From contig JAGBTH010000029.1 in NCBI GenBank assembly GCA_017631385.1, forward strand, positions 1 through 51,301: 51,301 nucleotides of DNA, in the 5' to 3' direction. The DNA comes from Kiritimatiellia bacterium (GTDB lineage Bacteria; Verrucomicrobiota; Kiritimatiellia; RFP12; UBA1067). The notes beneath the pieces were generated by a model. That model saw nothing but the letters and a program-made list of their open reading frames with translations, ran no database searches and had not been told where the DNA came from. The stretch's first letter is position 1; each line of letters opens with the position of its first letter. Position numbers and translations under genes: made by a program. Below are positions 19,756 to 36,325 of the stretch, one piece after another.

Positions 19756-22700
19756 TTACTCCTCATCCTCCTCCAGGTTCTCGCTTACTCGTCTTGCGTC
19801 TCTTACAATGGGATTTAAGCCCGCTGCCAAGTCAGCTATAGCGTCGATAAGCTCATCGGTCGTACGCTCCTCGTCAAAGACCGCCTCCATTACCCGTGCC
19901 GAATCGCCTATCGTCCTCTTAACAAACGACTCCATAGGAACCATATCGTTCCTCGATGCCGCCCAACTGCCCTTCAGGAACCTGTCGAGCGTAGCCTTAC
20001 AGCAAAAGCCGAGAACAAATAGAGAGTTATACGGCCCAAGTAAACACCCGACAACCCAGTCCGCTATCTGATCCTCTGGCGGCTCACTCCCCAACATCGC
20101 CTTATAAAGTTCGCCCATCCAGTAATAGAGACTCGAAAGAATGAAATGGTTAAGTATAACGGTATTAGCCACTTTACCGGCATTCTTAAGCGAAGGATCT
20201 GCAATCATCGCCCTAATCGCCTTAACCTCGTACTGAAGATACTGCTGCTGAGTCGTAAGGAACTGATACATCATGCGCCCTAAACGGTTGCGACGCTGTA
20301 CGCTCGTCTGATTCTCCATGCGGCCTGACTGCTGAGTTCGCTCAATAATCATCCATGTTTCAGCCATGGCGTTTTCTTCGCTCATGCCTCGCGCTATACA
20401 ATCACGGTATATCCCCTGGCCGACGACAAGACCGGGAACCAAATCGCCAATCTTATTCGTAATCATCGAAGCTTGCATAAAGCGCTTAAACCATCCCGCG
20501 TCATTCTTAGCGAGCGCGTTCTTAACGGCTTCCGTATTACCGACTTGCCACCTCGTTTTACGCTGCTCTGAGGCGAATAGCTTTTTCATCGCTTCCATCC
20601 CGGCGGGAGTAAACGCCTCTACGACATAGCGGGCAGTTTTAACAAGACCAATTTCAAAACCGAAAGCGGGAATTGAGGTCGTCTGCTTAAAGGTGACGCC
20701 TACATTGCCGCCCAAGGCGCATAACGCGGTCCAGCCTCGGATCTGGTCGCTTACCCACTCGATGCCGTTTGTCGTCCTGTCGTACGCTCCATGGCCTGAA
20801 AGAATATCGGTAATAAAGCCCAAGACAAGCTGATTCGCCCTGTTGCCGTGACTTGCGACAATCGTCTCCTGGAGCATACTTCTGCCGAAGATGCCGCGAA
20901 GCTCCAACCCAAGTTTCGCGTGTCCCTTCCACTGCGCGGCCTCCTCCATTCGACTCGCCCATATAGCGAATATATCCTGAGAGGTATCGAAGTCTCTTAA
21001 GTTAAAGACGCGCGGCGTTAACGCTTTAGGAAAGATAGTCCAGGAAACTCCCTCTACTTTCTCTAAGCCCTGCTTTTCCAAAAGCATCTTAACAGGGAAA
21101 TAGTTAGCCGCTTCGGAGTATACGCCGATACCAAAGAGAGTCTCACTTATATCAGAAAGCTCCTTGCGATTAACCTCATACCACTTGCCTAACCAGTTTA
21201 TGAGGTTCATATCCTCCGCGCTCAATAGCCGCGCTATCTCACTCGCCTGACCCTTTCGACCCCACTTTTTGACATTCTCGAAATAGTGGCTGCCCTCCTT
21301 CTCACCCTGAAGAAGAGAAACTAAAAGCTGCATCGCTCTACCTTTTGTAGGCATAACGCGCTTACCGCCCTTTAGCCCCATGAATTTTTCAAATCGTAAG
21401 TCTTCGCGGTTCATCTCAGACATGACTTTCTTAAAGCTCATGCGATATATCTTCTCAACCGCCTCATGAAAATCATCCCCATGACGCCGCATTTCACTCG
21501 CGCTTCTATCGCCCGCCTTTTGGATCTCGCGCATCAGGTAATTTACAAGCTCCAGAGCCTGAGTCTTATCGCCCTCGGCTGAAAAGCGCATCATATCCTC
21601 CAAGAGCGACGCAAAGCCCATGTGCCCCATGAGATAATTGCCGAGCGCCTGATTAAAGCCCTTCTCGACGGCATGACTTGAACGCGGATTAAAGAACGCT
21701 TTAGCGAATACCGCTGCCGCCGCTTTTGTGCGTCCTTCACGCTCCTCCATCGCCTCAAGAACCTTACCCCTCGCGCCTTGAGCTAATTCCTCCCAATAAC
21801 GCAAAGCAGACTCAATCTCTCCAGGAGTCTTATACTTCAAAGCTCCAAACTCGCGCAAGATAGAGAGCTTCCTAATCGTCTCTACATAAATTCGGCTTTG
21901 CTCAAGCTCACGCCCCGCTTCCTCATATTCAAGCGCCATTGAGGTAAGTTCACGCGACAATTCACTCGCCTCATTACTCGCGGCCTCAGGAGTAAGCCAC
22001 ATTGCATGGAGCATATACCTCGCCCTTAATTCAGCCTCCGCTGTTACCTTGCGCTTAAGCTCCTCCTTATCAGGCTTAAATCGGCCCGTCGCGCCAAACT
22101 CCTTTTTAAGAAGCTGCTCAAGCTTTTTACAAAGTTCTTCCCTCTTCTCGCGAATATGCCGCGCATGGATAATCTCGCCAATGTACGTCATCTGCGAGAG
22201 AATGCCGCGCTCAGTAGGAATATTCTCAAGCTTGAGTATCTGCTTAAAGGCGGTATCTCTGCTTTGAGAATACATAATCGACTTTACGAGCTTCTTATAA
22301 ATATTAGCTGCCGTTTTGCGGAGGAACTGAATAGCGAGACGATTCATCCAGGGATTCGCCCCTTCGGGGAGACCATGCTTTTCTCTCCAATACTTGGCGG
22401 CGAGATCTCGAACGTACTCCGCGAAAACCTTGGGGTTTTCCATCGTCTCGACATTAAGAGACTTTTTCTTTTTCTCCTCTTCACCCTCGGCTCCCGTAGC
22501 TGTTGAAGACGTATCAGCTTCTTCCTCATCTTCCTTCTTTGTCTTCTTACCTAATACGCCGCGCTCATCAGTAAACTTATTATGTAAGGCGTTAAGTAAT
22601 GTCTCTGTAAAGTCGACTCCAGCCCAAGCCTCGAATACATCGCTTTCGATACCCGCCTCAACACGCACCGCCTCATCCATCACCTCGGCTGTACGCCGCT

Positions 22701-25700
22701 CAAACATTGCCTCAGCCTTAGCGCCAAATGCGCCAACCTTCGCGCCCTCCCGCCCTTCGCGGCGCATTTCGCTCATGAACTTAGGCTTTAATGAATCATT
22801 AAGCGCCTTTAATATAGCGCTCTCGCTTACGCCTTTATCGAGACCCGAGCGGATATTACGCGCAATTTTAAGAGTCTCCCCCTGAACTGCTAAGGCGCGA
22901 GACCTAAGCTCATCGCCCGACATAGTTGGATGCGCCTTTTTAACCATCTTCATGACGGTATCAAACTTTAGAGCGCTATTCATTCTATCTTTCTTATCGA
23001 GCGCCAAACGACTCGCCAATGCAGCCGCAATTAGCGAATCATCATCCATTTCCGACAAACGCGGGAATGATGTTGAGAATTGAAATGCCCCCTGCGTCGG
23101 CTTAGTCGTAACCTTCCGACGCTCCTCTTTACTTAAATGTCCGAAGAGGTCTCTATTAGACGCAATTCCGGACGGCGCTTTAGAATCTCCTTCGCCTCGA
23201 CGAGCGACTCCCTTGCTTGCAAAATCGAGCGCAAGCGACGGCGCCGCATTTGAGAACCAATCCTGGATCCCAAATACGCCCGCCGTCCCTTTAACGATAT
23301 ATGCCTGGAGTTCACTACCTGTAGCCTTTCGTAAGTCGATGCCTAAAAACTTATTGGCAGATTCAACGCTATTTATTCTACCCTTTTCAATGACACGTTG
23401 CAATAGCCTCTCAGTAGGCTTAATTCTCGCTCCGTTCGCGGCGGTCGCAAGCGTCGTTACAGCGGAAACTACGCCGCCCTCACGAATAATATACTCCATT
23501 AAAGATACCGTCGTCTGGCCGGTCGTCCATACATCATCGACGATAACATACTGAAAGCCCTTTTCGACCTTACCCGCGAACTGAAATTCTCTTGAAACGC
23601 GCTCTTTTAGGGTAGCTCCCGTATTACGCTCATCGGAGACTTTCATAATGTCGGTCTCGACTTCACCGCCGAAAGCGTCCGCTAAGAGTATAGCGTACGC
23701 TTCAGGTAAACGGTTAGTACGCTTACCGTCGTCGTTTCTTACATATACCCACTTAACAGGCTTAGTAAAATCTACAAAGTCTTTTAAGACAGGGATTCTA
23801 TTTCTTGAAAAACGATGCTTAACAACCTCAAGCGCGTTCTCAATATCCCCATAGTATTTAGCGAGAAGATATTTAGCGAGCCACTTTGATTCTTCTTTCT
23901 TAAGCCACCTATCCACCATCGGCCTTGCCTCATTGAGCATGTACCTATCACGGTAGAACTTAAATAACTCATACTTCTCAGGCTCTTTATCCTGGCCTGT
24001 TAGATGCTGAACGCTCGTAGAAGTAACTACTTTCTCAAGCGATGCGGGTAAACTATCCCAATCAAGCTTTCTCGAGGCGATAGAATACTTTGGATAGTTA
24101 AACAAGTCTTCTGTCGTCTCAGGGTATTCATTCTTCGCTAATGACTCCCATTCGCTCGACATGCTGCCTCTCGCGCTACGTATCTCTGTATCAAACTCAA
24201 AGAACGCATCCATGATAGTTACACCCCTTACTGCAAACGCAGGAGATATAGCCTTAATAATCTTCTTAACTTTACTGGGGACATATTGCCCAGGGCCAAT
24301 ATCAATTAACGCGCTTACGCCCGCACTGTCCTCCGCTCCCAATGTGGCGATTTTTACCCACTCTTCGAGAGTTCCTCCAAACTTTTCATACGCAGGTATT
24401 CGCCTTACGCCTATTGAGACATTATGCGAATTTAAGTAAATAACGTGTCCGCTCTCTCCATCATCGCGAAGGAAGTTGTTTATAAGGTCTTTTACCTGAC
24501 TTATATCCCTAAAACTTTTCGTCTTTTGAGAAATGCCGCTTATCACTTCCCACTCAGGCTGAACGACGTTTTCAGGCGCGTCCATAGTGCACTGATAATT
24601 AAACGAATAGTATTTAGTTCCATCGGTAATGATGTGATCTAAGAGCTTTACGCCTACAGCCTTTAACTCATGCTTTATTGAAGTCGTAAGCGCCTTATCA
24701 GGCTTTGAGGGTGAGGGAACGCCGCTTGGATGGTTGTGAGAGAATATAACATACGCGGTCTTTGCTGGCATATTCCGCAATACCGTACCCTTTCTTATCA
24801 TCGCCTGACCTACCTGACCGATAGTCAGGATTTTTGCATCCAATATCCTACGGCGGCGATCGAGGTAGATAGCCTTGGTTGATTCGATAAATGGGCTTCT
24901 CGCGGTCATGAGAATTGCGGCAGCATCCTCAATACTCTTTACCGACAAGCCTATTAACTCTGTCGTATTAAATTCAGGCTCCCTATAATAATCCTTTAGG
25001 ACATTCGACGCTATAGGCATAGAATGCTTTTCAGCAAAGTCGAGCGCAGCTTTCCAGTTACCTCTTAAGAAAGCATCCTCCATTATCGGACGATAATCCT
25101 TAATGAAGTTAGTGTACTTTTGAGCCTCATCAACCATTACCTTTTTGCGCTCACTCTTAATTTCGCTCCGCTCGGCATATAAATCAAGCTCCATCTGAGC
25201 GATAGCCGATTTGGGGAGAAGTACACTATCGCGTTTAGCGCGATGTAAGCGAACGGAAAACTTAGGTAACTCTATCCCGCCACGCTCCTTATCAGCTTTT
25301 TCTATTACCTCCTGACGCTCTCTTTCAACTTGAGCTAAACGAGACTTAATCATACCCTCTAATCCCTTTATGGCGGGGTACATACGCCCTAACTCCTCAT
25401 TAGTCACCATCGGCTCAGGCTTGCGGTTACTCTCTTCCTCTGTAGCCGCTCTGCCGATTCCAACAGCCTTACCCTCTGACGAAAACCTAAATGTAGTTTT
25501 ATCTGCAAATAAGCCTAACACCTGAGACCAGTTACCGTTTTCATCGTGCCACCAGCTTTTGAAATTAACTATATCACCATTAGAATCAGTCTCCATTATC
25601 TTGGTGATTTTTCCGCTATCATGGTAGCTGATTTCTACAGCGCTTCCATCATCGTTTCCGATAGTAACAGCTGAAATATTCTCAGCAGAGAACCTTACTC

Positions 25701-28700
25701 TATAACGCTTATCGCCCTCTCTAAAGAAAACCTTATTAGGGTAACTTACGCCAGGCTGAAAGTCTACCGAAAGCTCATAATGCTCCCTATCTTCACCATA
25801 AAGACGGTATGAAGAAATCTCACCATCCTCAAAGAAGCTTAAGATTCTCTTTACTCTTTCATCGTCCACATATTCACGGTAAAGCGAAATGGAGTTATCC
25901 CAGAAGTGCAAAGTAGGCCCAATCATTTTACCATTCTCGTCGTACTTCTCACGGCGAGAAATCCGACCTTCCATATCATAAATGATCAAATCGCCTACAG
26001 GCTTACCGCTCTTATACTTAGCGTAGGATCTAACTCCCCCATGACTCCACCAAGTCCAATAATCTCCTTCGAGCTTACCGTTCTTCCAATTCGATACCTC
26101 ACATCTTTGCTCAGGCGAAGACCACTCCTCATACTTTCCGTTAGTCCTGTTACCCTTCCAAAGTTTACCGACGCTGCGCCAAATACCGTTAATGTACTCG
26201 CTTACGCCCATTCTTCCCAACTCATCGCCTGGAATAACCCCAGTTATCGGGATTCCCTCATGGCTCTTATCTTCCCTGTCCCACCATTCTTCAGCAACAA
26301 CCGAAGGTAGGATTTTACTTAAATCCACCTCGGGGTGCGTATGACGTAGCCAGTTAATTTCATTAAGCCCCGTATGAGCGTTATAGTATTCATCTCTCCA
26401 TGGCTCAAAGAACTGATCCCACTTATCAGCCTGCTCCAATGTCATATCGCTTGCGTCTGTAGCCATAAACGCAAGAAGCTTACCATTGCGGAACGCTACC
26501 TTCTTCGGGATTGCGGCGTAATGATGCCAATACTGATATGAGTGTTTAGTTAAGTTTCCATAACCATCGCCCTGCAAAAGGCACCAGGGGCTTGCGTCCT
26601 TGCCCCAATGCGTATTTATAATCTGACGCATGGCGAGCTGCCCGACAGGACGGCGAATAGTACCTAACTCTACTTCGAGGTATCGCTCACTTACGCCAGA
26701 ATCCAATAGAGCTTTAGCCTCTTCGGTTATCTCCTCCGTTTCATCGACATCATAAACGACAAGCCCATTAGGTAGTATCGTCTTATTCGATAGAGCTGAA
26801 ACGGTATCAGGATCTATCGGCTTTTCTTTCGGTAAATGCTGCGGGAACTGAATAAATATATCTTCCGGATTCTTAAACTTAAAAGGATCTACCTTCGCCC
26901 TCTCGGAGGTGAAAATAGCCTTATCAATCTTAAACTCATCTTGAGGTAAGATGATTGCTCCTGTTATCGTCCAATGAACCGCGAGCTTTTCTTTCTTTGT
27001 ATTCTCATATCCGTTAATAATGTCGAGAATCTTCTCTATTTTACTTTCTTCCAAGTCAGGTCGATGCTTGCCGATTAAGCGCGAATACTCCGCTCTCTTT
27101 CTCGCACCAATAGAAAAGCGGCTATTATCTAAAGAAGTATACTCATCCCAATCTACGAGGCTTTCAACCTCATAGCCCGCATCAGGGAAAAATAGTCTCG
27201 CTTTCTTGGAGTTCCCCTTAGGCGGCAAAACCCAACCGCGCGATGGCGCCACATCATCAAACGGCTTATCATTAACATCACGAAATGCACCATCACTTCT
27301 TAAAATACTCCAGGAGTGGAACTTTATATCAAGAAATTCGGCAGCCTCCTTAATCCATTTAATATCCTCTATCTCCTTAATCTCCCCATATGAAGATTGC
27401 CTAATGGGTTCTGTTCTAATAAACGCTACCTTGGGAGCACCCCACCTAATCGCGGTTTTAAGCATTTCTCTCGGGTGCATATTTATATGGTTCATCGTAC
27501 CTAAGAATATAGGTGTCGGCGCTCCCATTGGGATATCGCGATTATCAAGCTGAATCGCCCAAATGGAAATTTGCTCATCGAGCTTATTAAACCAATCAAA
27601 ACCACGATGATTAAAGATATAATAATATGAATAATCAGCAATGTCTCCCGCGCTCTTTAAGGGCTTACGTCTTGCGGTTGAGTACATTTCACCTGTGACG
27701 ACTGACGCGCCCGACTCAGGCATTACGCCTTTATCATACCAGGCTTTAAGGTCTGAGAGAATCTTACCAGTCGAAGTCTTAAGGGTATAAGTAGCTGTAA
27801 AGAGCGTCTCGCCTACTTCATTATCGACATCGACATAAATACTCTCTTCGCCAGAATCCTCGGCCAATTCCTTATTGCGCTCAATGACATCATAGAGAGT
27901 ATCAAACTGCGCCTCTGTCGGACGACGTGCAACTTCAATACCCTCACCCGACTTAATTCTGACGGCGCCTCCGCCAAGGACATCGAGGTAGCTACCCATA
28001 TTGCTTTCGCTATCTTCTCGCGCAATAAGGTTAATTAAACCTTCATGACTTGGAAACTCACCAATCCCGCCTTTAATCATTACGGGCGTGGGGACCTTGC
28101 CGCTCGGCAAAAGCCACTGCGCATGCGTATAGTCGCTTGTCGTACCAAAGCGCTTCTCAACAAAATCAAACTCCTCCTGTGTAGCAGCTCTCGGGACATA
28201 CTTCCTCATCCCGACAGAGTACATCTGCTTACCGTTGCGCCACTTATGAAGCGAGGTGAGCTTCCCGGTATTGTATACGACAAAGATATTACCTAAGCCC
28301 TCGCCCGCGTACTCCTTCGTTCCGTCAATGCCGGCACGAATCATCACATCGGCCATTTCAAGCTTAGTGAGGCTCTCGCCGTCTTCCTTAACGACACGCT
28401 TTAGATATGTCTCAATCCTTATTCCTGTCGTGCGCGTTTCATCCCTAAAGAAGTTCTCAGGAGCCTTCCAGCCCATCATGGCTACAATCTCCTGAACTCT
28501 TTGAGCCGCATCGGGATTAGGGCCTTGAGAGTCGATAAAGGACATCTCATCCCCATCATACTTAAACTGATAGAGATAGACAGGTGAGAAGAACTTACCT
28601 AATTTTGCGATAATCGTATTATGAGAGGGGGCGAAATAACCATATCCTGCGGCAACGTGCCCCCAATACTCGGCATCAACCTTTCTGTCAGTTAAATAAA

Positions 28701-31700
28701 AGCCGTTCCCTTGAGCGGCAAAGCCAGTACCTGAACCTAAATAAGATAGGTCAGGCGTATTAAAGTTAGCTCCACTACCATGCCAGAGCGAGACGGAATA
28801 AAATCCGCTCTTTTCGCGCTGAGTCGTAAGAATCTCATCCTTTGTTGGCGGCGTAAAGTCTCCGAGAAGATCCGCGGTATCGGTATTAGTCGCATAGACA
28901 TTCTTTAGATAAGCTTCAATCTCTTTTATAATTAAGTCTTGCGCCCTTTTGCGTCCCGCCTTTGTATCGCTCTCACCGTCAGACTGAAAACTTCTTAACT
29001 CCTGCGACGCGGCGAAAAGGTCTCCTAAGATGGATGCAGCAGGGCCAGGCTTGGAGAACATATCCCCCTTATAATTTACCCACGCCGTCGGACGGGACTT
29101 ATTCTTGCGCCATTCGGTTTTATTCTTACCCGCCTTTGCGCGAGCGTCCTCATCCTGATTGCGCCACTCTTGATACCAGGTAAGCGCTTCTAAGATGTCA
29201 GGCCTTAAATCATATTCCTTCTTCGCGGGATCACTTACAAGCTTTAGAAGCTCTGGCGCTAAACGCATTAAAGCTCTCATCTCATTTTCCATATCGAGAT
29301 GAATTTGCTTTTCCATAATAGCCTGCACGACTTTAGGATTAGTGCCGCCCAGGAGCGCAGCTAAAATACCATTCATCAGCCGCTTTTGACCCTCTTCAGT
29401 AATATGCCCATCATCATCGACGATACCCTGAGCGCGAGAAAGCTGACGAAAGACCCCAATCGGATTTACTGCGGCGCCTCCCGACTTCTTCTCTTCCTCA
29501 TCTTTAATAAGACCTGTCTCAGGATCTATCTGAAATAGAGGAATCAAATTTTTAGAGATAAGTATTCTCGCATCCTTAGCGGCGGTCTCAAATACATTAA
29601 GCCCGCGCTGAACAGTATCATTCGTATCTTCCGCTATCTCGGCAATCGTGGGTACTCTCTCGCCCTCCTTTACTTCGACAGATACAAATCTACAAATTAT
29701 AATCGGGGCTTCTGCCGCGTGTTCAGAAACCTCAAGTCCGCGCTCTTTCGCTTCCTCAAGGACTTGCGCCTTAAAGCGCTCAATCTTCTCGCCTCCACGC
29801 TCATACGCAAGCTGCAAGCCTCTCATGTGATGGTTACCGTCCAATACATCGCCAGTGGGAGATACAAGCGGAGCACCAGAGCCGGTAAACTCCATTACTC
29901 GACCGCCCTTTGAATAATCAGGGTCAGCCGCAATTTCTTCTACGAGCGCATGAGAATCATCGCTTGTTATGTCGCGTCCCTGATTTGCCGCGTCGAATCC
30001 CTCGCTCCAGCTTGTCCTGATGCCGTCAAAGATATTAACGACTTCAAGCTTCGCATGAATTTTGTAACTCTTCTTAGGAACGCGCTTTATTACATAATCG
30101 CCCTTATCCCATTCAGGACGCGTTATCTTGGAGGTATCAGGTATCGGGGATCGGGGATCAGAGGAGTCAGAGGGATGAGGTATGGGGGATGAGGGATGAG
30201 GGGAGACATCTTCCTTTGCAGGGGCTATCGGAAGCTCATCGTCTTTTCTCATCCCCTCTTTCTGATCCCTGATACCTGATCCCTGATCCCTAACAACTAT
30301 CTTGTCGATTCCTAATTCTCCCGAACCAAGTTTACCAGCCAAGACGGCATCATAAAAACTTCTTAAATTAAAGCTCCTACCCTCACCCATCATCTGACCT
30401 ATAATGGTCTCACGCGATTTACTCGTAGCGTCTCTTACCTCATTTACGCCCATCGAACCAAAGACCTTCGCCGCCCATGCCTGGAAGCGCTCGAATGCCG
30501 TAGACATGGAATTTACGACATAATGCCCGCTTGCGTATTCTTCCATCTGATGCGCCATAGCTTCATCAAGTCGCCCCTCCCAACCTTCGGAATTAGTATC
30601 TATTCCAAGACCTGAAGCTAAACGCTTTTGCTCTTCCTCTGTAACAATTTCTTTTGCAAACTTCCAGAGCGCATGGAAAGTCTCATGTCGTACCGTCGAC
30701 TGCCTCGCCGCCATACCATAGCCGATGTCACCCAATCGGCCAGTCGCGAGGTTAATAATGGCGTCGGCAGAAACCGAAACTTCCGTACCATCCTTTCGGC
30801 GCATGGCGATAGTACCAGACCCGCCCGTATAGCCGTTGACGACCATAAGCGCCTCCCTACGGCGCTCCGCGTCGCTAAGTTCTCCCCAGGTTCGAGCGTT
30901 GTTGCCATTTGCGCGAACGCGCTCATCGTACGAAACGCCTAAAGTAGAATCGAGAGCTGCGGCCTTAGAAAGCTCAACCTCGTTAATACTCCCGTCGGCA
31001 TTAAAGAATACTCCATCCTGCCTACGGTAAACGATAGTCTTTTGCCCCTTCTTAATCCATCCTTCATCACTCTTTCGACCGACTCTGACCCTCGCGACAT
31101 AAATGCCGCGCTCCTCGTCAGCTTCAAAACTCCCTTTAATATAACCAGGCAACAAAGACTCAATGGTCGACTCGTTGATTCTCACTCCCGAAAAGAATTG
31201 GTCGACCATACTTCTCGCTCTTGGATCGAACCTCGCGGTCTCCTCCTCTTCCTCAAGAAGTTGCGCTACCGCCTCAGCGGTTTTCACGTCTACGCGCATT
31301 TCCTCAGCAAGCCTGAAAACAATATCGCTCTGACCGTCATCTTCTTCATAAATCGTCCTCGCCCGCGTCAAAGCGTCCATAACCTCGACTTCTCTTTTAT
31401 TCTCCTCCTGCTCCTGACTAACCCCTGACTCCTCGCCCTTAACTCCTGCGCCTTCGCCGCCCTCATCCGTCTTCCTCCTTCTTTCATCACTCATCCGCCA
31501 GGCTTCTTCAATTGAGCGCCTAACATCCATTTCACGCTGATAAAGGTTAATAATCCCCTCATCGTAATTATTTAAGCCCGTAAGCTTTTTACCAAGTGCG
31601 TTTCTCACTCTACGCCTTACAAGCTGCCCAGGAACAGACGTTACACCAAATGCGACAGATCCTGGTAGCATATCTTCGACAGTCAACAAATAAGTCTTCA

Positions 31701-33588
31701 AGTCTTCCGTCGAGAAAGATAAGAGGCGCTTAATTTCAGGAATGATCCTTTTATCGAGAGGCTTGCCGTCCTTGGTAAGTTCATGCGCGAGCTGATCTAC
31801 CGCGATACCATGACGCCTTACTATTTCCTGCAACGGTTCTTCTACCCAACCTTCAGTAATACCGACTCTTAAGCCCTCGGTGATATACTTACTCATGAAG
31901 TTCTTAGCATACTGTCCAAATGTCCCTTCCTGCAAGCTTCGCCGCATAGCGTTAAACCCAAGAGACTTTAATTCCGCTTTCGTAAGTGACGACTCCAACC
32001 CAGGAATAACGAGATGCTCGATTCTATCGTTAATTAGTCCCACCCATAAGGCAGTCCATACAGACTCCTCACGGCTTACACCTGCGAGAGTGGCAGCATC
32101 AATATACTCCTGAGCGAATGACGAAAAGGCGCTACCTCTCGCTACAAGCCAAGCGGCATCTAATCCACCCTTCGCAGCGGAATACGCCGTTCGCATTCTT
32201 TTAAGTTGCTGAAGTTCTCTTGTATACTTATCTACAGAAATCAACAACCTGTTGATGGTTTCATTAGTATACTTTGATCCCCCTGCCATGGGAGAGAGGC
32301 GGCTAAATAAAGAGACATTGAGCATATCCTTTAAGGCCGCAGTCTTAGCAGCTTTCTTAACGTCGGCTAAATTGTCGATAGCGGCGATAGTCTTTGAGAC
32401 CTTACCTCCCTTTGTCGCTATCTTACCCGCGCCACCGTATGGAATAATCCAATGTACATTTTCCATAAATACCTGGTAAGCCTCACCTCCAAAGCTTTGA
32501 GCATCAGGTAATGACTGCTGTTCGTAAAGTTTCGCCTGTTCAATAAGATTATAAGCTTTATAGAAGTCTTCACGCTCCTTAGCATCAAGCTCGATTTTCG
32601 CCCAGGCTCCGATTGCGGTATCTTTAGCTAATCCATATAAGTCAGTACCAAGTGAGACAATAGACTGCTGAAGACCATATAGACCCATCTGAAATCTATC
32701 GCCCATCGTGCCGGTCGAGAAGTCTGTTTCGATGCCAAGAATACTACCCTTCTTTAAGTCTCCTCTCATCTGCGCGAATGTAGTCATAACCTTTAGACGC
32801 TCTTCCTCCTCAAGCGCCATGAGACCGTCGACATCGAGCTTTCCCTCAGCATAACTCTTAGCTAAGATATAACCCGCTAAGTCAGAAATATCTTGAACCA
32901 TCGTTAAGTATCTTACGAGCGGCTCACGCTTAGCGAGTTTAAGCTCATAGTCCCTAATTACATCAGCTTCATACTTGCGCTTCTCTTCATCGTTCATGCC
33001 GTTATAATGAAGAGTTCTTTGAGTCTTCTCTACGAGCTTACGCCCTTCGGGGTCTTTATCCTTCATGAGGTTATACCCTAAATCCTGCGTAGCGCACGTA
33101 GCTACAACAATCTCGCCCAATGTCGGCCCGCGCTCACCGTTTAAGGTGCTTGCTACCTTATTAAGTTTAGATTCACGGTCACGCGCATACTTAAACTTTT
33201 CTTCCCATGTCTTTTTACGCCACTCTTCAGCCTCAGGATCTTCAATAAGCCTATACTCCCCCTTAAAAAAGCGCCGCAATAACTCTACATTATTGCGCAT
33301 ATTATCAGACTTTCTTTTGCCGAAAAAGCTGCCGTCTTTATCTTCCATTCCCCATACGCCGCCGGTGACGCTTCGATAGAGAGCCGCTACTCCCTCATCC
33401 GTAAGACGCGAAATGTCAGTTTCAAAAAGCATATCGACGCTCGCTTTCCTGAGCGCCTTTGCTTCAAGCTTACTTTGATCCGCTTCAGTGCGGGTATAAT
33501 AATTTATCTGCGGCTCTCTAAGCCCGGTCTCATAAACCGTAGGCTTTCTTTCATTTAGACGCTTCTCCAGATTTTCCTTCTTGAACAT
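19756..33588 (-). CDS. Giant (about 4610 aa) polyvalent internal-virion/ejection protein in the gp16 position
   Basis: Uninterrupted 13.8-kb ORF. Start chosen at the ATG at 33588, preceded by AAGGAG; the track start at 33627 is also possible. Multiple enzymatic motifs are listed as sub-features. The C-terminal third contains hydrophobic segments. Confidence 0.85.
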   Translation of the reverse strand: MFKKENLEKRLNERKPTVYETGLREPQINYYTRTEADQSKLEAKALRKASVDMLFETDISRLTDEGVAALYRSVTGGVWGMEDKDGSFFGKRKSDNMRNNVELLRRFFKGEYRLIEDPEAEEWRKKTWEEKFKYARDRESKLNKVASTLNGERGPTLGEIVVATCATQDLGYNLMKDKDPEGRKLVEKTQRTLHYNGMNDEEKRKYEADVIRDYELKLAKREPLVRYLTMVQDISDLAGYILAKSYAEGKLDVDGLMALEEEERLKVMTTFAQMRGDLKKGSILGIETDFSTGTMGDRFQMGLYGLQQSIVSLGTDLYGLAKDTAIGAWAKIELDAKEREDFYKAYNLIEQAKLYEQQSLPDAQSFGGEAYQVFMENVHWIIPYGGAGKIATKGGKVSKTIAAIDNLADVKKAAKTAALKDMLNVSLFSRLSPMAGGSKYTNETINRLLISVDKYTRELQQLKRMRTAYSAAKGGLDAAWLVARGSAFSSFAQEYIDAATLAGVSREESVWTALWVGLINDRIEHLVIPGLESSLTKAELKSLGFNAMRRSLQEGTFGQYAKNFMSKYITEGLRVGITEGWVEEPLQEIVRRHGIAVDQLAHELTKDGKPLDKRIIPEIKRLLSFSTEDLKTYLLTVEDMLPGSVAFGVTSVPGQLVRRRVRNALGKKLTGLNNYDEGIINLYQREMDVRRSIEEAWRMSDERRRKTDEGGEGAGVKGEESGVSQEQEENKREVEVMDALTRARTIYEEDDGQSDIVFRLAEEMRVDVKTAEAVAQLLEEEEETARFDPRARSMVDQFFSGVRINESTIESLLPGYIKGSFEADEERGIYVARVRVGRKSDEGWIKKGQKTIVYRRQDGVFFNADGSINEVELSKAAALDSTLGVSYDERVRANGNNARTWGELSDAERRREALMVVNGYTGGSGTIAMRRKDGTEVSVSADAIINLATGRLGDIGYGMAARQSTVRHETFHALWKFAKEIVTEEEQKRLASGLGIDTNSEGWEGRLDEAMAHQMEEYASGHYVVNSMSTAFERFQAWAAKVFGSMGVNEVRDATSKSRETIIGQMMGEGRSFNLRSFYDAVLAGKLGSGELGIDKIVVRDQGSGIRDQKEGMRKDDELPIAPAKEDVSPHPSSPIPHPSDSSDPRSPIPDTSKITRPEWDKGDYVIKRVPKKSYKIHAKLEVVNIFDGIRTSWSEGFDAANQGRDITSDDSHALVEEIAADPDYSKGGRVMEFTGSGAPLVSPTGDVLDGNHHMRGLQLAYERGGEKIERFKAQVLEEAKERGLEVSEHAAEAPIIICRFVSVEVKEGERVPTIAEIAEDTNDTVQRGLNVFETAAKDARILISKNLIPLFQIDPETGLIKDEEEKKSGGAAVNPIGVFRQLSRAQGIVDDDGHITEEGQKRLMNGILAALLGGTNPKVVQAIMEKQIHLDMENEMRALMRLAPELLKLVSDPAKKEYDLRPDILEALTWYQEWRNQDEDARAKAGKNKTEWRKNKSRPTAWVNYKGDMFSKPGPAASILGDLFAASQELRSFQSDGESDTKAGRKRAQDLIIKEIEAYLKNVYATNTDTADLLGDFTPPTKDEILTTQREKSGFYSVSLWHGSGANFNTPDLSYLGSGTGFAAQGNGFYLTDRKVDAEYWGHVAAGYGYFAPSHNTIIAKLGKFFSPVYLYQFKYDGDEMSFIDSQGPNPDAAQRVQEIVAMMGWKAPENFFRDETRTTGIRIETYLKRVVKEDGESLTKLEMADVMIRAGIDGTKEYAGEGLGNIFVVYNTGKLTSLHKWRNGKQMYSVGMRKYVPRAATQEEFDFVEKRFGTTSDYTHAQWLLPSGKVPTPVMIKGGIGEFPSHEGLINLIAREDSESNMGSYLDVLGGGAVRIKSGEGIEVARRPTEAQFDTLYDVIERNKELAEDSGEESIYVDVDNEVGETLFTATYTLKTSTGKILSDLKAWYDKGVMPESGASVVTGEMYSTARRKPLKSAGDIADYSYYYIFNHRGFDWFNKLDEQISIWAIQLDNRDIPMGAPTPIFLGTMNHINMHPREMLKTAIRWGAPKVAFIRTEPIRQSSYGEIKEIEDIKWIKEAAEFLDIKFHSWSILRSDGAFRDVNDKPFDDVAPSRGWVLPPKGNSKKARLFFPDAGYEVESLVDWDEYTSLDNSRFSIGARKRAEYSRLIGKHRPDLEESKIEKILDIINGYENTKKEKLAVHWTITGAIILPQDEFKIDKAIFTSERAKVDPFKFKNPEDIFIQFPQHLPKEKPIDPDTVSALSNKTILPNGLVVYDVDETEEITEEAKALLDSGVSERYLEVELGTIRRPVGQLAMRQIINTHWGKDASPWCLLQGDGYGNLTKHSYQYWHHYAAIPKKVAFRNGKLLAFMATDASDMTLEQADKWDQFFEPWRDEYYNAHTGLNEINWLRHTHPEVDLSKILPSVVAEEWWDREDKSHEGIPITGVIPGDELGRMGVSEYINGIWRSVGKLWKGNRTNGKYEEWSSPEQRCEVSNWKNGKLEGDYWTWWSHGGVRSYAKYKSGKPVGDLIIYDMEGRISRREKYDENGKMIGPTLHFWDNSISLYREYVDDERVKRILSFFEDGEISSYRLYGEDREHYELSVDFQPGVSYPNKVFFREGDKRYRVRFSAENISAVTIGNDDGSAVEISYHDSGKITKIMETDSNGDIVNFKSWWHDENGNWSQVLGLFADKTTFRFSSEGKAVGIGRAATEEESNRKPEPMVTNEELGRMYPAIKGLEGMIKSRLAQVERERQEVIEKADKERGGIELPKFSVRLHRAKRDSVLLPKSAIAQMELDLYAERSEIKSERKKVMVDEAQKYTNFIKDYRPIMEDAFLRGNWKAALDFAEKHSMPIASNVLKDYYREPEFNTTELIGLSVKSIEDAAAILMTARSPFIESTKAIYLDRRRRILDAKILTIGQVGQAMIRKGTVLRNMPAKTAYVIFSHNHPSGVPSPSKPDKALTTSIKHELKAVGVKLLDHIITDGTKYYSFNYQCTMDAPENVVQPEWEVISGISQKTKSFRDISQVKDLINNFLRDDGESGHVIYLNSHNVSIGVRRIPAYEKFGGTLEEWVKIATLGAEDSAGVSALIDIGPGQYVPSKVKKIIKAISPAFAVRGVTIMDAFFEFDTEIRSARGSMSSEWESLAKNEYPETTEDLFNYPKYSIASRKLDWDSLPASLEKVVTSTSVQHLTGQDKEPEKYELFKFYRDRYMLNEARPMVDRWLKKEESKWLAKYLLAKYYGDIENALEVVKHRFSRNRIPVLKDFVDFTKPVKWVYVRNDDGKRTNRLPEAYAILLADAFGGEVETDIMKVSDERNTGATLKERVSREFQFAGKVEKGFQYVIVDDVWTTGQTTVSLMEYIIREGGVVSAVTTLATAANGARIKPTERLLQRVIEKGRINSVESANKFLGIDLRKATGSELQAYIVKGTAGVFGIQDWFSNAAPSLALDFASKGVARRGEGDSKAPSGIASNRDLFGHLSKEERRKVTTKPTQGAFQFSTSFPRLSEMDDDSLIAAALASRLALDKKDRMNSALKFDTVMKMVKKAHPTMSGDELRSRALAVQGETLKIARNIRSGLDKGVSESAILKALNDSLKPKFMSEMRREGREGAKVGAFGAKAEAMFERRTAEVMDEAVRVEAGIESDVFEAWAGVDFTETLLNALHNKFTDERGVLGKKTKKEDEEEADTSSTATGAEGEEEKKKKSLNVETMENPKVFAEYVRDLAAKYWREKHGLPEGANPWMNRLAIQFLRKTAANIYKKLVKSIMYSQSRDTAFKQILKLENIPTERGILSQMTYIGEIIHARHIREKREELCKKLEQLLKKEFGATGRFKPDKEELKRKVTAEAELRARYMLHAMWLTPEAASNEASELSRELTSMALEYEEAGRELEQSRIYVETIRKLSILREFGALKYKTPGEIESALRYWEELAQGARGKVLEAMEEREGRTKAAAAVFAKAFFNPRSSHAVEKGFNQALGNYLMGHMGFASLLEDMMRFSAEGDKTQALELVNYLMREIQKAGDRSASEMRRHGDDFHEAVEKIYRMSFKKVMSEMNREDLRFEKFMGLKGGKRVMPTKGRAMQLLVSLLQGEKEGSHYFENVKKWGRKGQASEIARLLSAEDMNLINWLGKWYEVNRKELSDISETLFGIGVYSEAANYFPVKMLLEKQGLEKVEGVSWTIFPKALTPRVFNLRDFDTSQDIFAIWASRMEEAAQWKGHAKLGLELRGIFGRSMLQETIVASHGNRANQLVLGFITDILSGHGAYDRTTNGIEWVSDQIRGWTALCALGGNVGVTFKQTTSIPAFGFEIGLVKTARYVVEAFTPAGMEAMKKLFASEQRKTRWQVGNTEAVKNALAKNDAGWFKRFMQASMITNKIGDLVPGLVVGQGIYRDCIARGMSEENAMAETWMIIERTQQSGRMENQTSVQRRNRLGRMMYQFLTTQQQYLQYEVKAIRAMIADPSLKNAGKVANTVILNHFILSSLYYWMGELYKAMLGSEPPEDQIADWVVGCLLGPYNSLFVLGFCCKATLDRFLKGSWAASRNDMVPMESFVKRTIGDSARVMEAVFDEERTTDELIDAIADLAAGLNPIVRDARRVSENLEEDEE
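23430..23800 (-). other. ComF/type-I phosphoribosyltransferase-like domain
   Basis: RNTGATLKERVSREFQFAG...QYVIVDDVWTTGQTTVSLMEYIIREGG, with the PRPP-binding loop VDDVxTTGxT at 23521-23547. Confidence 0.65.
24600..24900 (-). other. RadC-like JAB/MPN metalloprotease domain with an intact motif
   Basis: AYVIFSHNHPSGVPSPSKPDKALTTSIKHELKAVGVKLLDHIIT, with HNHPSG at 24721-24738. Confidence 0.75.
25470..26190 (-). other. MORN / YwqK-like repeat region
   Basis: Repeated G(K)xxGxxxxW/Y units: NGKYEEWSS...NGKLEGDYWTWWSHGGVRSYAKYKSGKPVGDLIIYDMEGRISRREKYDENGKMIGP... Confidence 0.5.
27380..27500 (-). other. Degenerate (probably inactive) RadC-like JAB domain
   Basis: GTMNHINMHPREMLKTAIRWGAPKVAFIRTEP follows the RadC pattern G(T)...VHPREVFK.A...A..vil.HNHPSG, but with the metal motif replaced. 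Confidence 0.35.
28500..28810 (-). other. PARP-like (H-Y-[EDQ] clade) ADP-ribosyltransferase domain
   Basis: SLWHGSGANFNTPDL...GNGFYLTD parallels PARP catalytic LWHGSRTTNFAGIL...GKGIYFAD. The third catalytic position is uncertain (YLYQFKYD). Confidence 0.55.
29760..29920 (-). other. ParB/sulfiredoxin-like domain motif region
   Basis: GDVLDGNHHMRGLQLAY (motif at 29815-29841) resembles the DGxHR box of ParB N-terminal domains. Confidence 0.45.
30133..30290. repeat. Nested inverted octamer-repeat structure lying in frame inside the giant gene
   Basis: GGTATCAGGTATCGGGGATCGGGGATCAG plus GGGATGAGGTATGGGGGATGAGGGATGAGGGG (30133-30203), opposed by CTCATCCCCTC (30248-58) and CTGATCCCTGATACCTGATCCCTGATCCC (30262-90). 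Translated as ...RDQGSGIRDQ...SPHPSSPIPHPSDSSDPRSPIP... Confidence 0.85.
30520..30730 (-). other. Zincin-like metallopeptidase motif region of the giant protein
   Basis: VRHETFHALWKF, with HExxH at 30673-30687, and downstream acidic EAMAHQMEEY. Confidence 0.55.
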
Positions 33589-35248
33589 TAAGATTCTCCT
33601 TTGCTTTATAATTTCTTTGAATATCAATTAAATCCTGAACTCTCGCGCTGCGATTCGCGTTGAAATCACCTACGAACCAATCGGTTTTCATCTTCGATAT
33701 TACCTTTTCCATCGCCTCAGGACGATAAACCTCAGAATCCAACTCCTTTAAGGTTCTTAAAAACGATTCTCCAAGCTCAAATAACTTCCAGCCCCTAATC
33801 CGCTCCGACTCAGCGGGGACTAAAAAATTAACCTGACCAAACGCCTTTTGTGAACTTGCTGGAACATACCCTTCTTTATCAAGTTCTCCCGTATAACCGA
33901 AAGCGGAATAGAACATTCTCATCGCCCGCGCTTCCTGTTCGGTAAGATTGGTTTTAAGTCTCCTCCCGAAAGTTTGTGCGAAACTATCCGAAACCTTCCC
34001 CTCAATCATAGCGGCCTTATATTCACGCCAAATTTCAGCCTGGTCAGTTGCAATCTTCTGCGGATCGTACGTTCCTTCAGCCTGACAAAACATATTCCAC
34101 GTCAACCTACGCGAAAGCTCTTCTTCAAAGTGGCCTTGCTTGGCGCGTTCAATCTGATTATCCTTCTTCTCTAAAGCGTCCTTAATTCTCGTATAGGTCT
34201 CTAAATACTTTAAGGCTACCTCAGGGGCTAACTTCCGTAACTCCACATCATCGGCCATCTTCTTATATTCGAGCATATACTCACTATCAGGTAAGTCCTT
34301 ACCCATCAAATCAAGCTCGAACTGTACGCACTTCGCTTTTAGTGCGTCTCTATCCTTTTTTAGCTGATGCTCTTTTTCGCCTATTTTCCCTAACTTCGCA
34401 TCCTCCACCTTCTTTATGAGTCCTTTCATAAAATCATCTGGCAAGAGCTTTGTACTTACCTGAACAGAGGTAAGTTCACCCTTAAGAGAGGGTAAATCTT
34501 TTAAGTACGTCTCAGGATCTTCCTTAAGCCTCTTAAGAATAGCGTCAAAATGAACTTCCTCCGTTGCCCCGCGAAGGTCAAACAACACCAAATCCGCGTA
34601 TCTCGAGAGCGCCCAATCGCGGATGTACGCCTCGCGCTCGGGACCCGACCACTCCGTATGAAGATTCATCGCGTGATTTCTATTCTGTATCGCCCTTTGA
34701 GCGGATGTATTATTCATCGCCCCCATCGCCCAATCAAGCGAATCGCTCTTAACAAGCTCATCAGCGGCGCGAATCGAAGAGGCTCTTAACTCACGCGCCT
34801 CTTGCTGCATTAAAGAGCCTAAAAGAGTATCTCTTTGAGGCGCGAGCATAAGCTTAAGGCGGTTTTGGTGCTCTTCGGACTTTTCGCCCGCAATAGCTAT
34901 CATATCATTTTCAAAAGCCTCTCCCGCCTCCGCAGATACACCGTCTGCGCCAACACCCTGGCGATGAACATAACCGTTTTTAGGGTTTGTCATTCTTTGG
35001 CGCCAAATCTTTTTTATTTCGGTAGCGTCTATGGCAAGTTCTCTATCTTCCTTCTCTTTCTTTATCGCGGCTAAATCGACGATTAGATTCTGAAACCCGC
35101 GCCCAATATCGCGCCCAAACCCCGCGACACTTTGCCCTAACTTTGCCGCCGCATGAGCGCTCGATTGTAAATCAGGTAATTCTACTTTTCTTACCTCACC
35201 TAAATTACCGAGGCTTACGCGTCTTCTTGTATAGTCCCCTGTACCCAT
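33551..35248 (-). CDS. Internal virion protein (gp15-position)
   Basis: 565-aa helical protein between the gp14-like and giant genes. Assigned by synteny only. Confidence 0.5.
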   Translation of the reverse strand: MGTGDYTRRRVSLGNLGEVRKVELPDLQSSAHAAAKLGQSVAGFGRDIGRGFQNLIVDLAAIKKEKEDRELAIDATEIKKIWRQRMTNPKNGYVHRQGVGADGVSAEAGEAFENDMIAIAGEKSEEHQNRLKLMLAPQRDTLLGSLMQQEARELRASSIRAADELVKSDSLDWAMGAMNNTSAQRAIQNRNHAMNLHTEWSGPEREAYIRDWALSRYADLVLFDLRGATEEVHFDAILKRLKEDPETYLKDLPSLKGELTSVQVSTKLLPDDFMKGLIKKVEDAKLGKIGEKEHQLKKDRDALKAKCVQFELDLMGKDLPDSEYMLEYKKMADDVELRKLAPEVALKYLETYTRIKDALEKKDNQIERAKQGHFEEELSRRLTWNMFCQAEGTYDPQKIATDQAEIWREYKAAMIEGKVSDSFAQTFGRRLKTNLTEQEARAMRMFYSAFGYTGELDKEGYVPASSQKAFGQVNFLVPAESERIRGWKLFELGESFLRTLKELDSEVYRPEAMEKVISKMKTDWFVGDFNANRSARVQDLIDIQRNYKAKENLNVQEGKSGEASK

Positions 35249-35264: not shown

Positions 35265-35840
35265 TTAAGCCAGTTTCGTAAATGTCCCGTAGCTCGATAA
35301 GCCCATACCGATTAAGGACCCAGCTCCGCTTAAGGAAGTTCCAAGAGCATTATACTTAGCCGCTTTTCTCGCGTTAGATCCCGAAATGATATTATTCTCA
35401 GCGCTTGCTAAAAGCGAGTTAGCATTAGATTTATAAGTCCATACATCAATTAACGCATTATTGCGGATAGTTGAAATATCAGCTTCTCCCTCCTGAACGG
35501 TCGAACTTAAAACATTACCGAAAGTATCTTTACTCTTATCAACGAGTAACCCGCTCCCCGCCCAGTTGGCGTATTGTGTCCCGATTTCAGCTGCGAGAAG
35601 TCTTGAGCGTTTCTCCGCTTCCTGCTCACCCTGGAGCTGCGCAATCGCGCTACGCTCATTCATAAGTTGAGCCTGATAACGGTTCTCAGCCGCTGCCGCA
35701 TTAGCCTGCTGTTCAGCGGCTTTACCCTCCTCATAACTTGAGTACGCGCTAAACGCCGTTCCTGCGATAATCGCCGCATCTGCCGCTACTGCCGCGAGTG
35801 TCCACCACCCGGCTCCCGCTGCTACTGCCGCCGCTGTCAT
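35265..35840 (-). CDS. Internal virion protein (gp14-like)
   Basis: 191 aa. Ala-rich hydrophobic N-terminus, then a Gln/Ala-rich helical region, similar in size and composition to T7 gp14. Synteny supports the call. Confidence 0.5.
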   Translation of the reverse strand: MTAAAVAAGAGWWTLAAVAADAAIIAGTAFSAYSSYEEGKAAEQQANAAAAENRYQAQLMNERSAIAQLQGEQEAEKRSRLLAAEIGTQYANWAGSGLLVDKSKDTFGNVLSSTVQEGEADISTIRNNALIDVWTYKSNANSLLASAENNIISGSNARKAAKYNALGTSLSGAGSLIGMGLSSYGTFTKLA

Positions 35841-36325
35841 CCTAAAGCCTCCTTTCGGGTAATTCCAAATAAAACAAAATTTGCGTTAGAAAAACTAACC
35901 TTATCTATTCTTCTCATCTTAAGGACTCTTTCATGCCAAAGGACGCTACCTACATAATCTTCATTAGGTAGCGACATAAATATATCTACATATTCGGGAG
36001 TTTCAGCAATAATCGCTTTCATTACCTTTCTTGAAAGCTTTACATAAGAAATCTTATACTTATTCGCGTTCTCGCAGCTCATATAGCATAGCCACCTCTT
36101 ATTTGAGTAGAATGTCTCGCCATAAGGCGGCATAACGCCACAATAGCCGATAATCTCGCCTTTATGCCTTACCGTCCAGCAATCCTCAAAAATCTTAATA
36201 AGTGTGCGCCCACCATCTAAACTTTCATGCTCAAGCCTATCGCCCTCACGAAAGTTAGTCTCTACATAATCTATATCCTCCTGAGTCGAAGGCTCAAGAG
36301 TTGTAAATTCATCTATCTCAATCAT
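35837..36325 (-). CDS. gp13-position internal virion protein, possible GNAT-like fold
   Basis: 162 aa. WTVRHKGEIIGYCGV pattern. Position immediately after the nozzle gene. Confidence 0.4.
   Translation of the reverse strand: MIEIDEFTTLEPSTQEDIDYVETNFREGDRLEHESLDGGRTLIKIFEDCWTVRHKGEIIGYCGVMPPYGETFYSNKRWLCYMSCENANKYKISYVKLSRKVMKAIIAETPEYVDIFMSLPNEDYVGSVLWHERVLKMRRIDKVSFSNANFVLFGITRKEALG

Follow-up and report, generated by a model that had tools for sequence, protein, structure and literature searches.

The window analysed here, a stretch of 51,301 nucleotides (nt) that makes up positions 1 to 51,301 of contig JAGBTH010000029.1, contains a prophage of about 44 kb from a gut Kiritimatiellia bacterium, and about 31% of this prophage is taken up by one giant gene. 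The gene is a single uninterrupted open reading frame (ORF) on the minus strand, running from a first TTG at 33627 to a stop codon at 19756-19758. Its likely start is the ATG at 33588, which has AAAGGAGAATCTTA before it, with the ribosome-binding site AGGAGA; the start overlaps the 3' end of the upstream gene, which encodes a protein of 565 amino acids (aa), by 38 nt. The initial annotation, drafted by a model from the sequence, had described one uninterrupted minus-strand ORF of 13.8 kb and a product about 3.5 times the size of T7 gp16, and both statements were borne out, with 4,610 aa from this ATG versus 1,318 aa for gp16. The motifs that it named are all present, at the positions it gave or at most about 12 nt away from them: HETFH at 30673-30687, DGNHH at 29827-29841, LWHGS at 28774-28788, GFYLTD at 28687-28704, HNHPSG at 24721-24738 and VDDVWTTGQT at 23512-23541. 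By BLASTP against orthologues, the protein consists of three parts, namely a conserved N block, a variable middle made of cassettes and a conserved C block, with the following features.

19756..33588, minus strand: giant ORF, 4,610 aa, about 520 kDa, isoelectric point 6.0, ATG at 33588
31369..33588, minus strand: N-terminal module, aa 1-740, helical and conserved (BLASTP 35-52% identity to all relatives)
30289..31071, minus strand: zincin-like region, aa 840-1100, with HETFH at 30673-30687 and LDEAMAH at 30550-30570
29695..30057, minus strand: ddrB-like ParB, aa 1178-1298 (DGNHH at 29827-29841), PF18763
28804..29694, minus strand: conserved region after ParB, aa 1299-1595, which ends the N block; alignments with all relatives stop at aa 1591-1595
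23182..28803, minus strand: putative effector-cassette array, aa 1596-3469, unalignable or out of order in relatives
28222..28803, minus strand: tentative ADP-ribosyltransferase (ART)-like cassette, aa 1596-1789 (H1603, Y1631, D1755), with LWHGS / GFYLTD / AGIDG
aa 1790-1968: unnamed cassette
27295..27567, minus strand: degenerate RadC/JAB cassette, aa 2008-2098, HxH lost, PF04002
26302..27111, minus strand: unnamed alpha/beta cassette, aa 2160-2429, AlphaFold2 predicted local distance difference test (pLDDT) mostly 80-97
25450..26202, minus strand: tentative MORN/YwqK-like beta-hairpin repeats, aa 2463-2713, predicted by AlphaFold2 as a hairpin ladder with pLDDT up to 87
24598..24936, minus strand: intact RadC/JAB, aa 2885-2997, PF04002 at 1.2e-29 and 103 bits
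aa 3010-3230: unnamed cassette
23299..23880, minus strand: probable ComF-like phosphoribosyltransferase (PRTase) cassette, aa 3237-3430 (VDDVWTTGQT), phrog_22413 at 3e-23
19759..23181, minus strand: C block, predicted to be all-helical, aa 3470-4610, conserved in relatives

A scan of one genome per species yielded eight loci with relatives of the giant gene, in six Kiritimatiellae/Kiritimatiellia metagenome-assembled genomes (MAGs), one 'Lentisphaeraceae' bin and one rumen bin; the Kiritimatiellae/Kiritimatiellia loci come from animal gut wherever a source is given. A scan of IMG/VR added six viral contigs of 42.8-47.7 kb. Across the MAG and IMG/VR sets, 11 independent assemblies (L008, L009, L011, L013, L014 and L016-L021) hold an uninterrupted single-ORF orthologue, measuring from 3,567 to over 4,248 codons, and the giant ORF is therefore not an assembly artefact. 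A chimera created in assembly, or a fusion of several genes that has decayed, could still be argued from three metagenome contigs (L001, L002 and L003), in which the giant locus appears as two or three ORFs. These splits, however, correspond to a run of N that marks a scaffold gap in L001, to a frameshift within homologous sequence at about 9500, at the C-terminal junction of L002, and to a single in-frame stop at 9944-9946 (read as TAG) in L003, which gives 1,874 and 1,598 codons. The N module of L002 is encoded in a separate frame of 749 aa, and the junction after it is possibly a frameshift or else the true boundary of a separate gene of that length. Given the single ORFs from 11 other assemblies of different samples, and a representative protein library that includes giants of up to 5,642 aa, the chimera explanation is effectively refuted already, and we attach practically no weight to it. 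Sequencing error, decay and recoding are all candidates for the L003 stop and the L002 frameshift.

In L001 (17-9634), the gene caller of the source missed a frame of 3,205 codons and called opposite-strand ORFs of 1,349 and 639 aa. Since gene callers partly miss them, giant phage ORFs are under-represented in protein databases, which accounts for near-empty word-index searches: a word-index protein search returned no homologue for aa 1590-2860 and a single one for aa 1-1170 of the N block. Homologues surfaced only through exhaustive profile searches and DNA-level locus scans.

The giant gene is the last gene of an operon for tail and ejection proteins, in which the genes upstream, named here after the internal virion proteins (IVPs) of podoviruses, were assigned as follows.

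44727..48809, minus strand: major capsid protein, head protease/scaffold and portal (phrog_212, phrog_458 and phrog_332)
36322..40185, minus strand: tail tubular B (958 aa) and tail tubular A (328 aa), phrog_376 at 2e-99 and phrog_394 at 1e-21
35837..36325, minus strand: IVP-A (gp13-like), 162 aa, phrog_308 at 2e-7, epsilon15 gp13 at an expectation value (E) of 4e-3
35265..35840, minus strand: IVP-B (gp14-like), 191 aa, phrog_418 at 1e-14, epsilon15 gp14 at E 3e-6
33551..35248, minus strand: 565-aa protein in the IVP-C slot (T7 gp15 / epsilon15 gp15 / bbp11), phrog_1044 at 2.5e-5 (weak)

The portal match (phrog_332) has an E of 3e-57 in the PHROG scan. By tblastn, tail tubular B resembles proteins of pelagiphages, BPP-1 and Yersinia and Vibrio podoviruses at 24-29% identity, while neither tail tubular protein shows pairwise similarity to T7 gp11 or gp12. 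Because the IVPs match epsilon15 and the tubular proteins do not match gp11 and gp12, we place the module as epsilon15/BPP-1-like within the T7 supergroup. The T7-like gene order that had been read from the sequence thus holds as a podovirus virion module with IVP slots, but not as a match to T7 itself. Downstream of tail tubular B, IVP-A, IVP-B and the IVP-C slot, the giant gene occupies the syntenic position of IVP-D. The corresponding order is gp13, gp14, gp15 and gp16 in T7; gp13, gp14, gp15 (SLT), gp16 and gp17 in epsilon15; bbp12, bbp11 (SLT) and bbp10 (2,052 aa) in BPP-1; and coil protein, SLT protein and a 2,480-aa protein in podovirus MW202473 (Manatee Spring). The proposal that the giant protein fills the gp16 slot therefore stands, as synteny around this position, that of the last ejection protein, extends to epsilon15, BPP-1 and MW202473. 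In the relatives, the upstream IVP genes are conserved together with the giant gene, and the gene for the 565-aa protein is likewise kept upstream of it. This protein displays weak N-terminal similarity to epsilon15 gp15 and bbp11; in contrast to bbp11, epsilon15 gp15 and the MW202473 counterpart, it has no detectable SLT domain.

The C block aligns with that of relatives from aa 3470 or 3716 to aa 4601 at 48-64% identity (BLASTP), and in an AlphaFold2 model DSSP assigns almost all of it to helix. An exhaustive profile search with the C block returned 1,182 clusters at E <= 1e-3, 249 of them at E <= 1e-30, and in nearly all matches the module forms the very C-terminal end of a protein with 2,000-5,642 aa. 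As this family consists mostly of giants, the window protein is an ordinary-sized member of a large, already sequenced family, and its size is not unusual, contrary to what had been supposed. A Pfam scan of 11 among the largest members revealed ddrB-ParB in eight, LPD23 in seven, ART-PolyVal in six, RadC and PRTase in two each, and PBECR5, the DUF6782 metallopeptidase and LPD1 in one each. When the C-block model was compared with the predicted viral structures of BFVD using Foldseek, 42 matches were obtained at E <= 1e-3, all of them the last chunk of long viral proteins; those with names are called 'ART-PolyVal-like', 'Large polyvalent protein associated domain', 'Crystallin beta/gamma motif' and 'Structural protein'.

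Other searches with the C block gave no match (tblastn against 50,697 phage records), nothing below E = 1 (Foldseek of the model against the PDB), nothing meaningful (profile search against PDB sequences) and no consistent family (PHROG scan of 19 divergent C-module proteins). A narrow hidden Markov model (HMM) of the C block, built from 17 sequences, missed Bbp10 of phage BPP-1, and a broad profile of 115 sequences found it, matching Bbp10 residues 1660-2003 with an E of 1.8e-17. In hhalign comparisons, the C block scored 96.9% over 322 columns with Bbp10, 83% over 586 columns with the 2,480-aa protein of MW202473, and 99.1% with gp74 of Tenacibaculum phage Gundel_1 (2,482 aa, annotated as 'structural protein'). 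The part homologous to Bbp10 comprises the last ~350 aa, about aa 4230-4590 (nt ~19819-20901), and the pairwise match in the window covers aa 4245-4505 (nt 20074-20856). Single members of the C-module family also match Bbp10 pairwise, and the Bbp10 C-terminus is present in 49 phage records. Bbp10 is listed as a homologue of IVP-D, that is, T7 gp16, in Table 2 of Hardies et al. 2016 (PMC4819975), from which we take this assignment. The authors, who needed joined sub-family profiles in a podovirus-only library to establish the link, found IVP-D candidates to be extensively alpha-helical and state that IVPs 'variably host ... domains destined for the cytoplasm' (PMC4819975).

These observations bear on whether the C block is itself a gp16-like part of the ejection machinery. 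In an alternative that we regard as unlikely, the protein would be cargo only: its end modules would serve as packaging or docking signals, the C block would be analogous but not homologous to gp16, and forming the conduit would fall to the proteins of 191 and 565 aa. Similarity of the C block to T7 gp16 is indeed not detectable (hmmsearch E 0.69 and hhalign 0.4%, with single-sequence templates), and the hydrophobic segments reported for the C-terminal third reduce to one, since a single 19-residue window has a mean Kyte-Doolittle value above 1.5 (aa 4511-4530). Packaged effectors that are not channel parts also exist, in the Dar system of P1 and Alt of T4 (PMC5512222). However, the giant gene lies precisely at the IVP-D position, for which there is no further large helical protein, the C block is homologous to Bbp10, an assigned IVP-D, and it is far more strongly conserved than the cargo. 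We therefore prefer to regard the C block as IVP-D-like; of the channel-forming, gp16-like region first proposed, homology to the IVP-D-assigned Bbp10 remains, but no direct similarity to gp16 was detected.

The N block, from aa 19 to about aa 1595, shares 35-37% identity with orthologues and 52% with L001 (BLASTP). Its N-terminal module (aa 1-740) has no Pfam, PHROG, NCBIfam or PDB match, and narrow and broad N-block profiles match the references solely in the ParB region, or nowhere. The ParB domain, which is of the ddrB-like type, is well defined: PF18763 scores 37.4-40.3 bits versus a cut-off of 27.6, which confirms the ParB-like DGNHH box seen by eye, and the region containing it is homologous in podovirus MW202473 (E 1e-15 to 1e-23). 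The zincin is a tentative assignment that draws on motif conservation. HET[FW]H and LDExMA are invariant in all eight relatives compared, and the H, E, H and downstream E are invariant in 10-11 distant family members at 20-23% identity; a DUF6782 metallopeptidase match also occurs somewhere in the protein of one of the 11 family members scanned with Pfam. The HExxH motif noted earlier is thus present and invariant across the family, but no Pfam or PDB profile confirms a zincin. Its invariance in an otherwise variable family suggests a core job, which by analogy could be self-processing, as proposed by Iyer et al., or peptidoglycan cleavage, as proposed by the phi24B authors. Peptidoglycan cleavage would make up for the transglycosylase missing from the 565-aa protein. 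Searches of the whole ejection operon turned up no muralytic domain, unless this role falls to the invariant zincin.

Within the cassette array, the solid domain calls are the two RadC copies, to which the ddrB-ParB of the N block can be added. The degenerate copy matches PF04002 at E 6e-5 (23.3 bits versus a cut-off of 22.1) and TIGR00608 at E 1e-4, and the intact copy, at 103 bits, has a complete HNHPSG...PSPSKPD metal site and matches PDB entry 2qlc (8e-9) and phrog_10276, in agreement with the degenerate and intact RadC/JAB domains first described. The cassette at aa 3237-3430 is, judging from its sequence, a probable PRTase: 11 NCBIfam PRTase models match the phosphoribosyl pyrophosphate (PRPP) loop, and with Pribosyltran (PF00156) the L011 orthologue of the cassette reaches 26.9 bits, above the cut-off of 26.3. 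The proposed ComF-like PRTase is thus supported by the PRPP loop, phrog_22413 and the NCBIfam models, although the window copy itself stays below the Pfam cut-off, at 16-18.9 bits.

The ART-like cassette can be assigned tentatively, from its motif blocks. LWHGS, GFYLTD..A..Y and AGIDG...FVVY are collinear with the VYHGT, YF[TS]..A..Y and [YF]DG[IV]...[IV]VF blocks of ART-PolyVal, and the sole profile match is a weak one to DUF3990 (E 0.003). There is no match to PF18760, hhalign against ART-PolyVal gives a probability of 10.6%, and AlphaFold2 models this segment with low to moderate confidence. The Pfam-validated ART-PolyVal domains of relatives were also made into an HMM, which did not match the cassette. 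The PARP-like ART core of the initial annotation therefore holds for the motifs and their order, but not at the level of profiles. In most family members the catalytic His of this cassette is replaced by Thr (YTGSAADY), while the window protein and its closest relatives keep the His (LWHGS, LYHGS); from the sequence, the subfamily may not be a conventional ADP-ribosyltransferase. For the MORN-like segment, a tentative assignment from the predicted fold, Foldseek gave weak matches to the single-layer sheet of OspA (E 3e-4) and to SET7/9 (E 5e-3), the N-terminal domain of which we take to be MORN-type. The hairpin ladder is consistent with the MORN/YwqK-like repeats suggested earlier, but no Pfam or NCBIfam match to the region was obtained.

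A comparison of homologous prophages had been suggested as a check on domain shuffling, and we find that the cassettes recur at other positions in other family members. Among 146 family representatives, the ART-like cassette recurs in 30, the segment at aa 1830-2000 in 7, aa 2130-2470 in 14, RadC in 9, aa 3010-3230 in 8, PRTase in 16 and the MORN-like segment in one; the 14 family members in the third group carry homologues of the unnamed alpha/beta cassette. The middles of the relatives contain ART-PolyVal, LPD3, MuF_C, PBECR5, Zeta toxin/AAA_33, RadC and PRTase by Pfam. The domain combination is thus not unusual, contrary to the initial annotation, as PRTase, ART-PolyVal and RadC also occur together in L011 and L014; only the MORN-like segment is rare (1/146).

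Polyvalent proteins, as described by Iyer et al. 2017 (PMC5512222), combine many unrelated enzymatic domains in one polypeptide, are encoded among late virion genes and are predicted to be injected and processed by a zincin. That survey stresses MuF-, portal- and N4 virion RNA polymerase-linked versions and already reports PRTase in polyvalent proteins of Verrucomicrobia prophages; no link to gp16 or BPP-1 was found in its text (PMC5512222). The window protein shares this vocabulary through ddrB-ParB, RadC, PRTase, ART and zincin, the last three at a borderline or motif level, and the signature domains ART-PolyVal, LPD3, LPD23, LPD1, MuF_C and PBECR5 are present in its orthologues and family. 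Its conserved C-terminal module, in contrast, is not among the matching Pfam LPD families.

The closest counterparts in the same slot, after tail tubular B, IVP-B and an SLT/IVP-C-slot gene, are BPP-1 Bbp10 (NP_958679, 2,052 aa) and the MW202473 protein (UOF77183.1, 2,480 aa), the latter with a ParB-containing region in common with the window protein. Both are half its size, we saw no variable array of ART, RadC and PRTase in either, and both are followed by a tail-fibre gene, whereas the giant gene of the window is not. T7 gp16 shares the position after gp13-, gp14- and gp15-like genes, the all-helical character predicted for the C block and the presumed ejectosome role, but has an N-terminal lytic transglycosylase that is lacking in the 3.5 times larger window protein. 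N4 gp50 (virion RNA polymerase, 3,500 aa) is likewise a giant in the IVP-D slot with enzymatic cargo; it has an IVP-D-like C-terminal domain after the embedded RNA polymerase and, with gp60 of Pseudomonas phage H66, belongs to the IVP-D proteins with domains destined for the cytoplasm (PMC4819975). The cargo of gp50 and gp60 is one RNA polymerase or one methylase site, whereas the window protein carries a shuffled array, and no sequence similarity to the gp50 C-terminus was detected. Gp47 of the Stx phage phi24B (2,811 aa), which proteomics detected in virions and which was put forward as an ejection protein (bioRxiv 10.64898/2026.04.10.717836), is also a podovirus polyvalent protein that ends the late operon (and, for gp47, the genome), but its LPD domains differ. 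It was considered as a homologue and rejected, sharing neither the C block nor the N block. Polymorphic toxins such as Rhs and contact-dependent inhibition (CDI) proteins offer a further parallel in their conserved delivery modules and rapidly exchanged enzymatic cassettes; in the window protein, however, the cassettes are internal and several at once, immunity genes are absent and delivery would be via the phage tail.

Taking the observed position, conservation pattern and domain content of the giant protein together, we put the probability at roughly 70% that it is an internal virion (ejection) protein of the polyvalent class, encoded by a podovirus prophage of the epsilon15/BPP-1 type in a gut Kiritimatiellia bacterium. 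That it is a polyvalent protein, as first proposed, is supported by ddrB-ParB and two RadC domains above their cut-offs, a borderline PRTase and the setting in a phage virion operon. Packaging and ejection are well supported by context, if unproven. T7 gp15 and gp16 contribute to a trans-envelope conduit. Extrapolating from T7 gp14/15/16, N4 gp50 and the polyvalent-protein proposal, we envisage that a few copies would be built into the capsid core via the conserved end modules and, at infection, would pass out through the tail together with the DNA or before it. The helical C block, perhaps in concert with the N module and the 565-aa protein, might then form part of a trans-envelope conduit as in T7, and the cassettes (ParB-like NTPase or nuclease, ART-like, RadC and PRTase) would reach the cytoplasm before phage gene expression, where, by modifying proteins, nucleic acids or nucleotides of the host, they could weaken its defences and bring the cell under phage control. 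More speculatively, the zincin or the head protease might cut the chain at [R/K/M][F/Y]S[I/V] boundaries and free the effectors.

Several findings weigh against this interpretation. Direct similarity of the protein to T7 gp16 or gp15, epsilon15 gp16 or gp17, the N4 gp50 C-terminus or pelagiphage IVPs was not detected by HMM, hhalign, PDB profile search or Foldseek, so that gp16 is reached indirectly, via a single published table and synteny. Confidence in the C-block model is low (pLDDT 58.6). For ART, MORN and zincin, no assignment is backed by a significant profile match, the zincin region having none in Pfam or in PDB profiles. Pfam revealed no lytic transglycosylase in either the giant or the 565-aa protein. 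Because it has no C module in common with the window protein, phi24B gp47 counts as an analogue and not as a homologue. Finally, no terminase large subunit (TerL) was recognisable in the window, whether with PHROG, with Pfam or by tblastn using the TerL proteins of BPP-1 and pelagiphages, nor was a Walker A motif found in any ORF of the window; the prophage may be defective, the terminase very divergent, or its gene outside the window.

A different kind of explanation is that the protein is not injected at all, being either a late cytoplasmic multi-enzyme or an external tail protein (central fibre or tape-measure-like) encoded in a structural operon. It would fit the lack of a tail-fibre gene after the giant gene, in the window as in the relatives, and weak BFVD matches to 'minor tail protein' and 'tape measure protein' (E 0.009-0.04). 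The strong BFVD matches, however, are all polyvalent proteins, enzyme domains directed at NAD, nucleotides and nucleic acids have no plausible extracellular role, and candidates for the fibre exist elsewhere, in unassigned ORFs of 415, 200 and 206 aa between capsid and tail tubular A, so that we judge this explanation very improbable beside that of an ejection protein. These three ORFs, at 41102-43810, are the only candidates for a receptor-binding fibre in the module.

The cassette boundaries are marked by a short peptide that the initial annotation lacked and that is new with this analysis; no earlier report was found in a literature search, and a term search of the text of Iyer et al. 2017 found no punctuation motif. 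A set of 79 family proteins, each with 2,500 aa or more, contains R[FYWH]S[IV] 154 times versus 10.3 expected from shuffles, an enrichment of about 15-fold, and 148 of the 154 copies lie outside the first and last 1,000 residues, though these zones make up 55% of the sequence. The preferred context upstream is (N/D)(G/P)D-I. The window protein has five copies of the degenerate form [RKM][FY]S[IVT] versus 0.96 expected: MYSV at aa 1789, MYST at aa 1968, RFSI at aa 2157, KFSV at aa 2776 and KYSI at aa 3167. Each coincides with a cassette boundary that homology had indicated independently, with basic residues after it, and an FYSV is found near aa 1586, just before the array.

The motif may be a protease site, a docking peptide or a plain conserved linker. 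Of these, processing is in our view a tentative reading and rather doubtful. The same caution applies to the wider idea that C-module giants are polymorphic effector arrays, in which invariant ends and the zincin would frame exchangeable cassettes that are cut or handed off at the boundary peptide, and to its corollary that the chain is cut into separate effectors in the capsid or after injection. If true, one gene, about 31% of the genome, would be a self-processing polyprotein of injected anti-host enzymes. Were the motif a processing site, the hypothesis that zincins process polyvalent proteins would become testable by peptide mapping.

What sets the locus apart is the roughly 31% share of the genome, the host phylum, the clean architecture of N block, cassette array and C block, and the boundary motif. 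If the protein is ejected as we propose, it is a well-delimited example of a podovirus loading pre-made enzymes ahead of its DNA. The C module, shared with Bbp10-type proteins and present in more than 1,000 clusters, appears to be a common end module for diverse cargo, and could be used as a query to find injected anti-defence effectors in metagenomes. The locus is also a record of temperate podoviruses in Kiritimatiellia, a lineage of gut and rumen; we know of no studied phages from the host phylum.

The limits of the prophage are suggested by a 26-bp direct repeat with two mismatches, GAGAAAGTGTTTGACAG(G/A)GGTTA(G/A)AG, at 5931-5956 and 49925-49950. The first copy overlaps the stop codon of a 577-aa ORF (5951-7684) and the second that of a 362-aa integrase (49945-51033), both recombinase-like genes. 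As putative attachment (att) sites, the repeats would bound an element of 44.0 kb, matching the 42.8-47.7 kb of the IMG/VR relatives. A 15-bp repeat at 51156 and 6889 was set aside as an att site, being probably due to chance, and the 26-bp repeat is the better candidate. A 1,116-aa minus-strand ORF at 567-3917, outside the putative element, has no Pfam or PHROG match. In the relatives, an integrase homologous to the 362-aa integrase of the window lies directly 3' of the giant gene, at ~12744-13650 in L008, L009, L013, L014, L017 and L021 and at ~13248-15946 in L019 and L020, with no tail-fibre gene thereafter. The window has its integrase at the portal side instead, and the genes after the giant gene are other than in the relatives. 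Directly downstream of the giant gene, the stretch 17341-19605 contains a gene for a DUF3800 protein of 232 aa (18907-19605) as well as an ORF of 445 aa that weakly matches CoiA_N; it has a low GC content of 0.39-0.42 and its genes are not conserved in relatives, and these genes may be moron or defence cargo.

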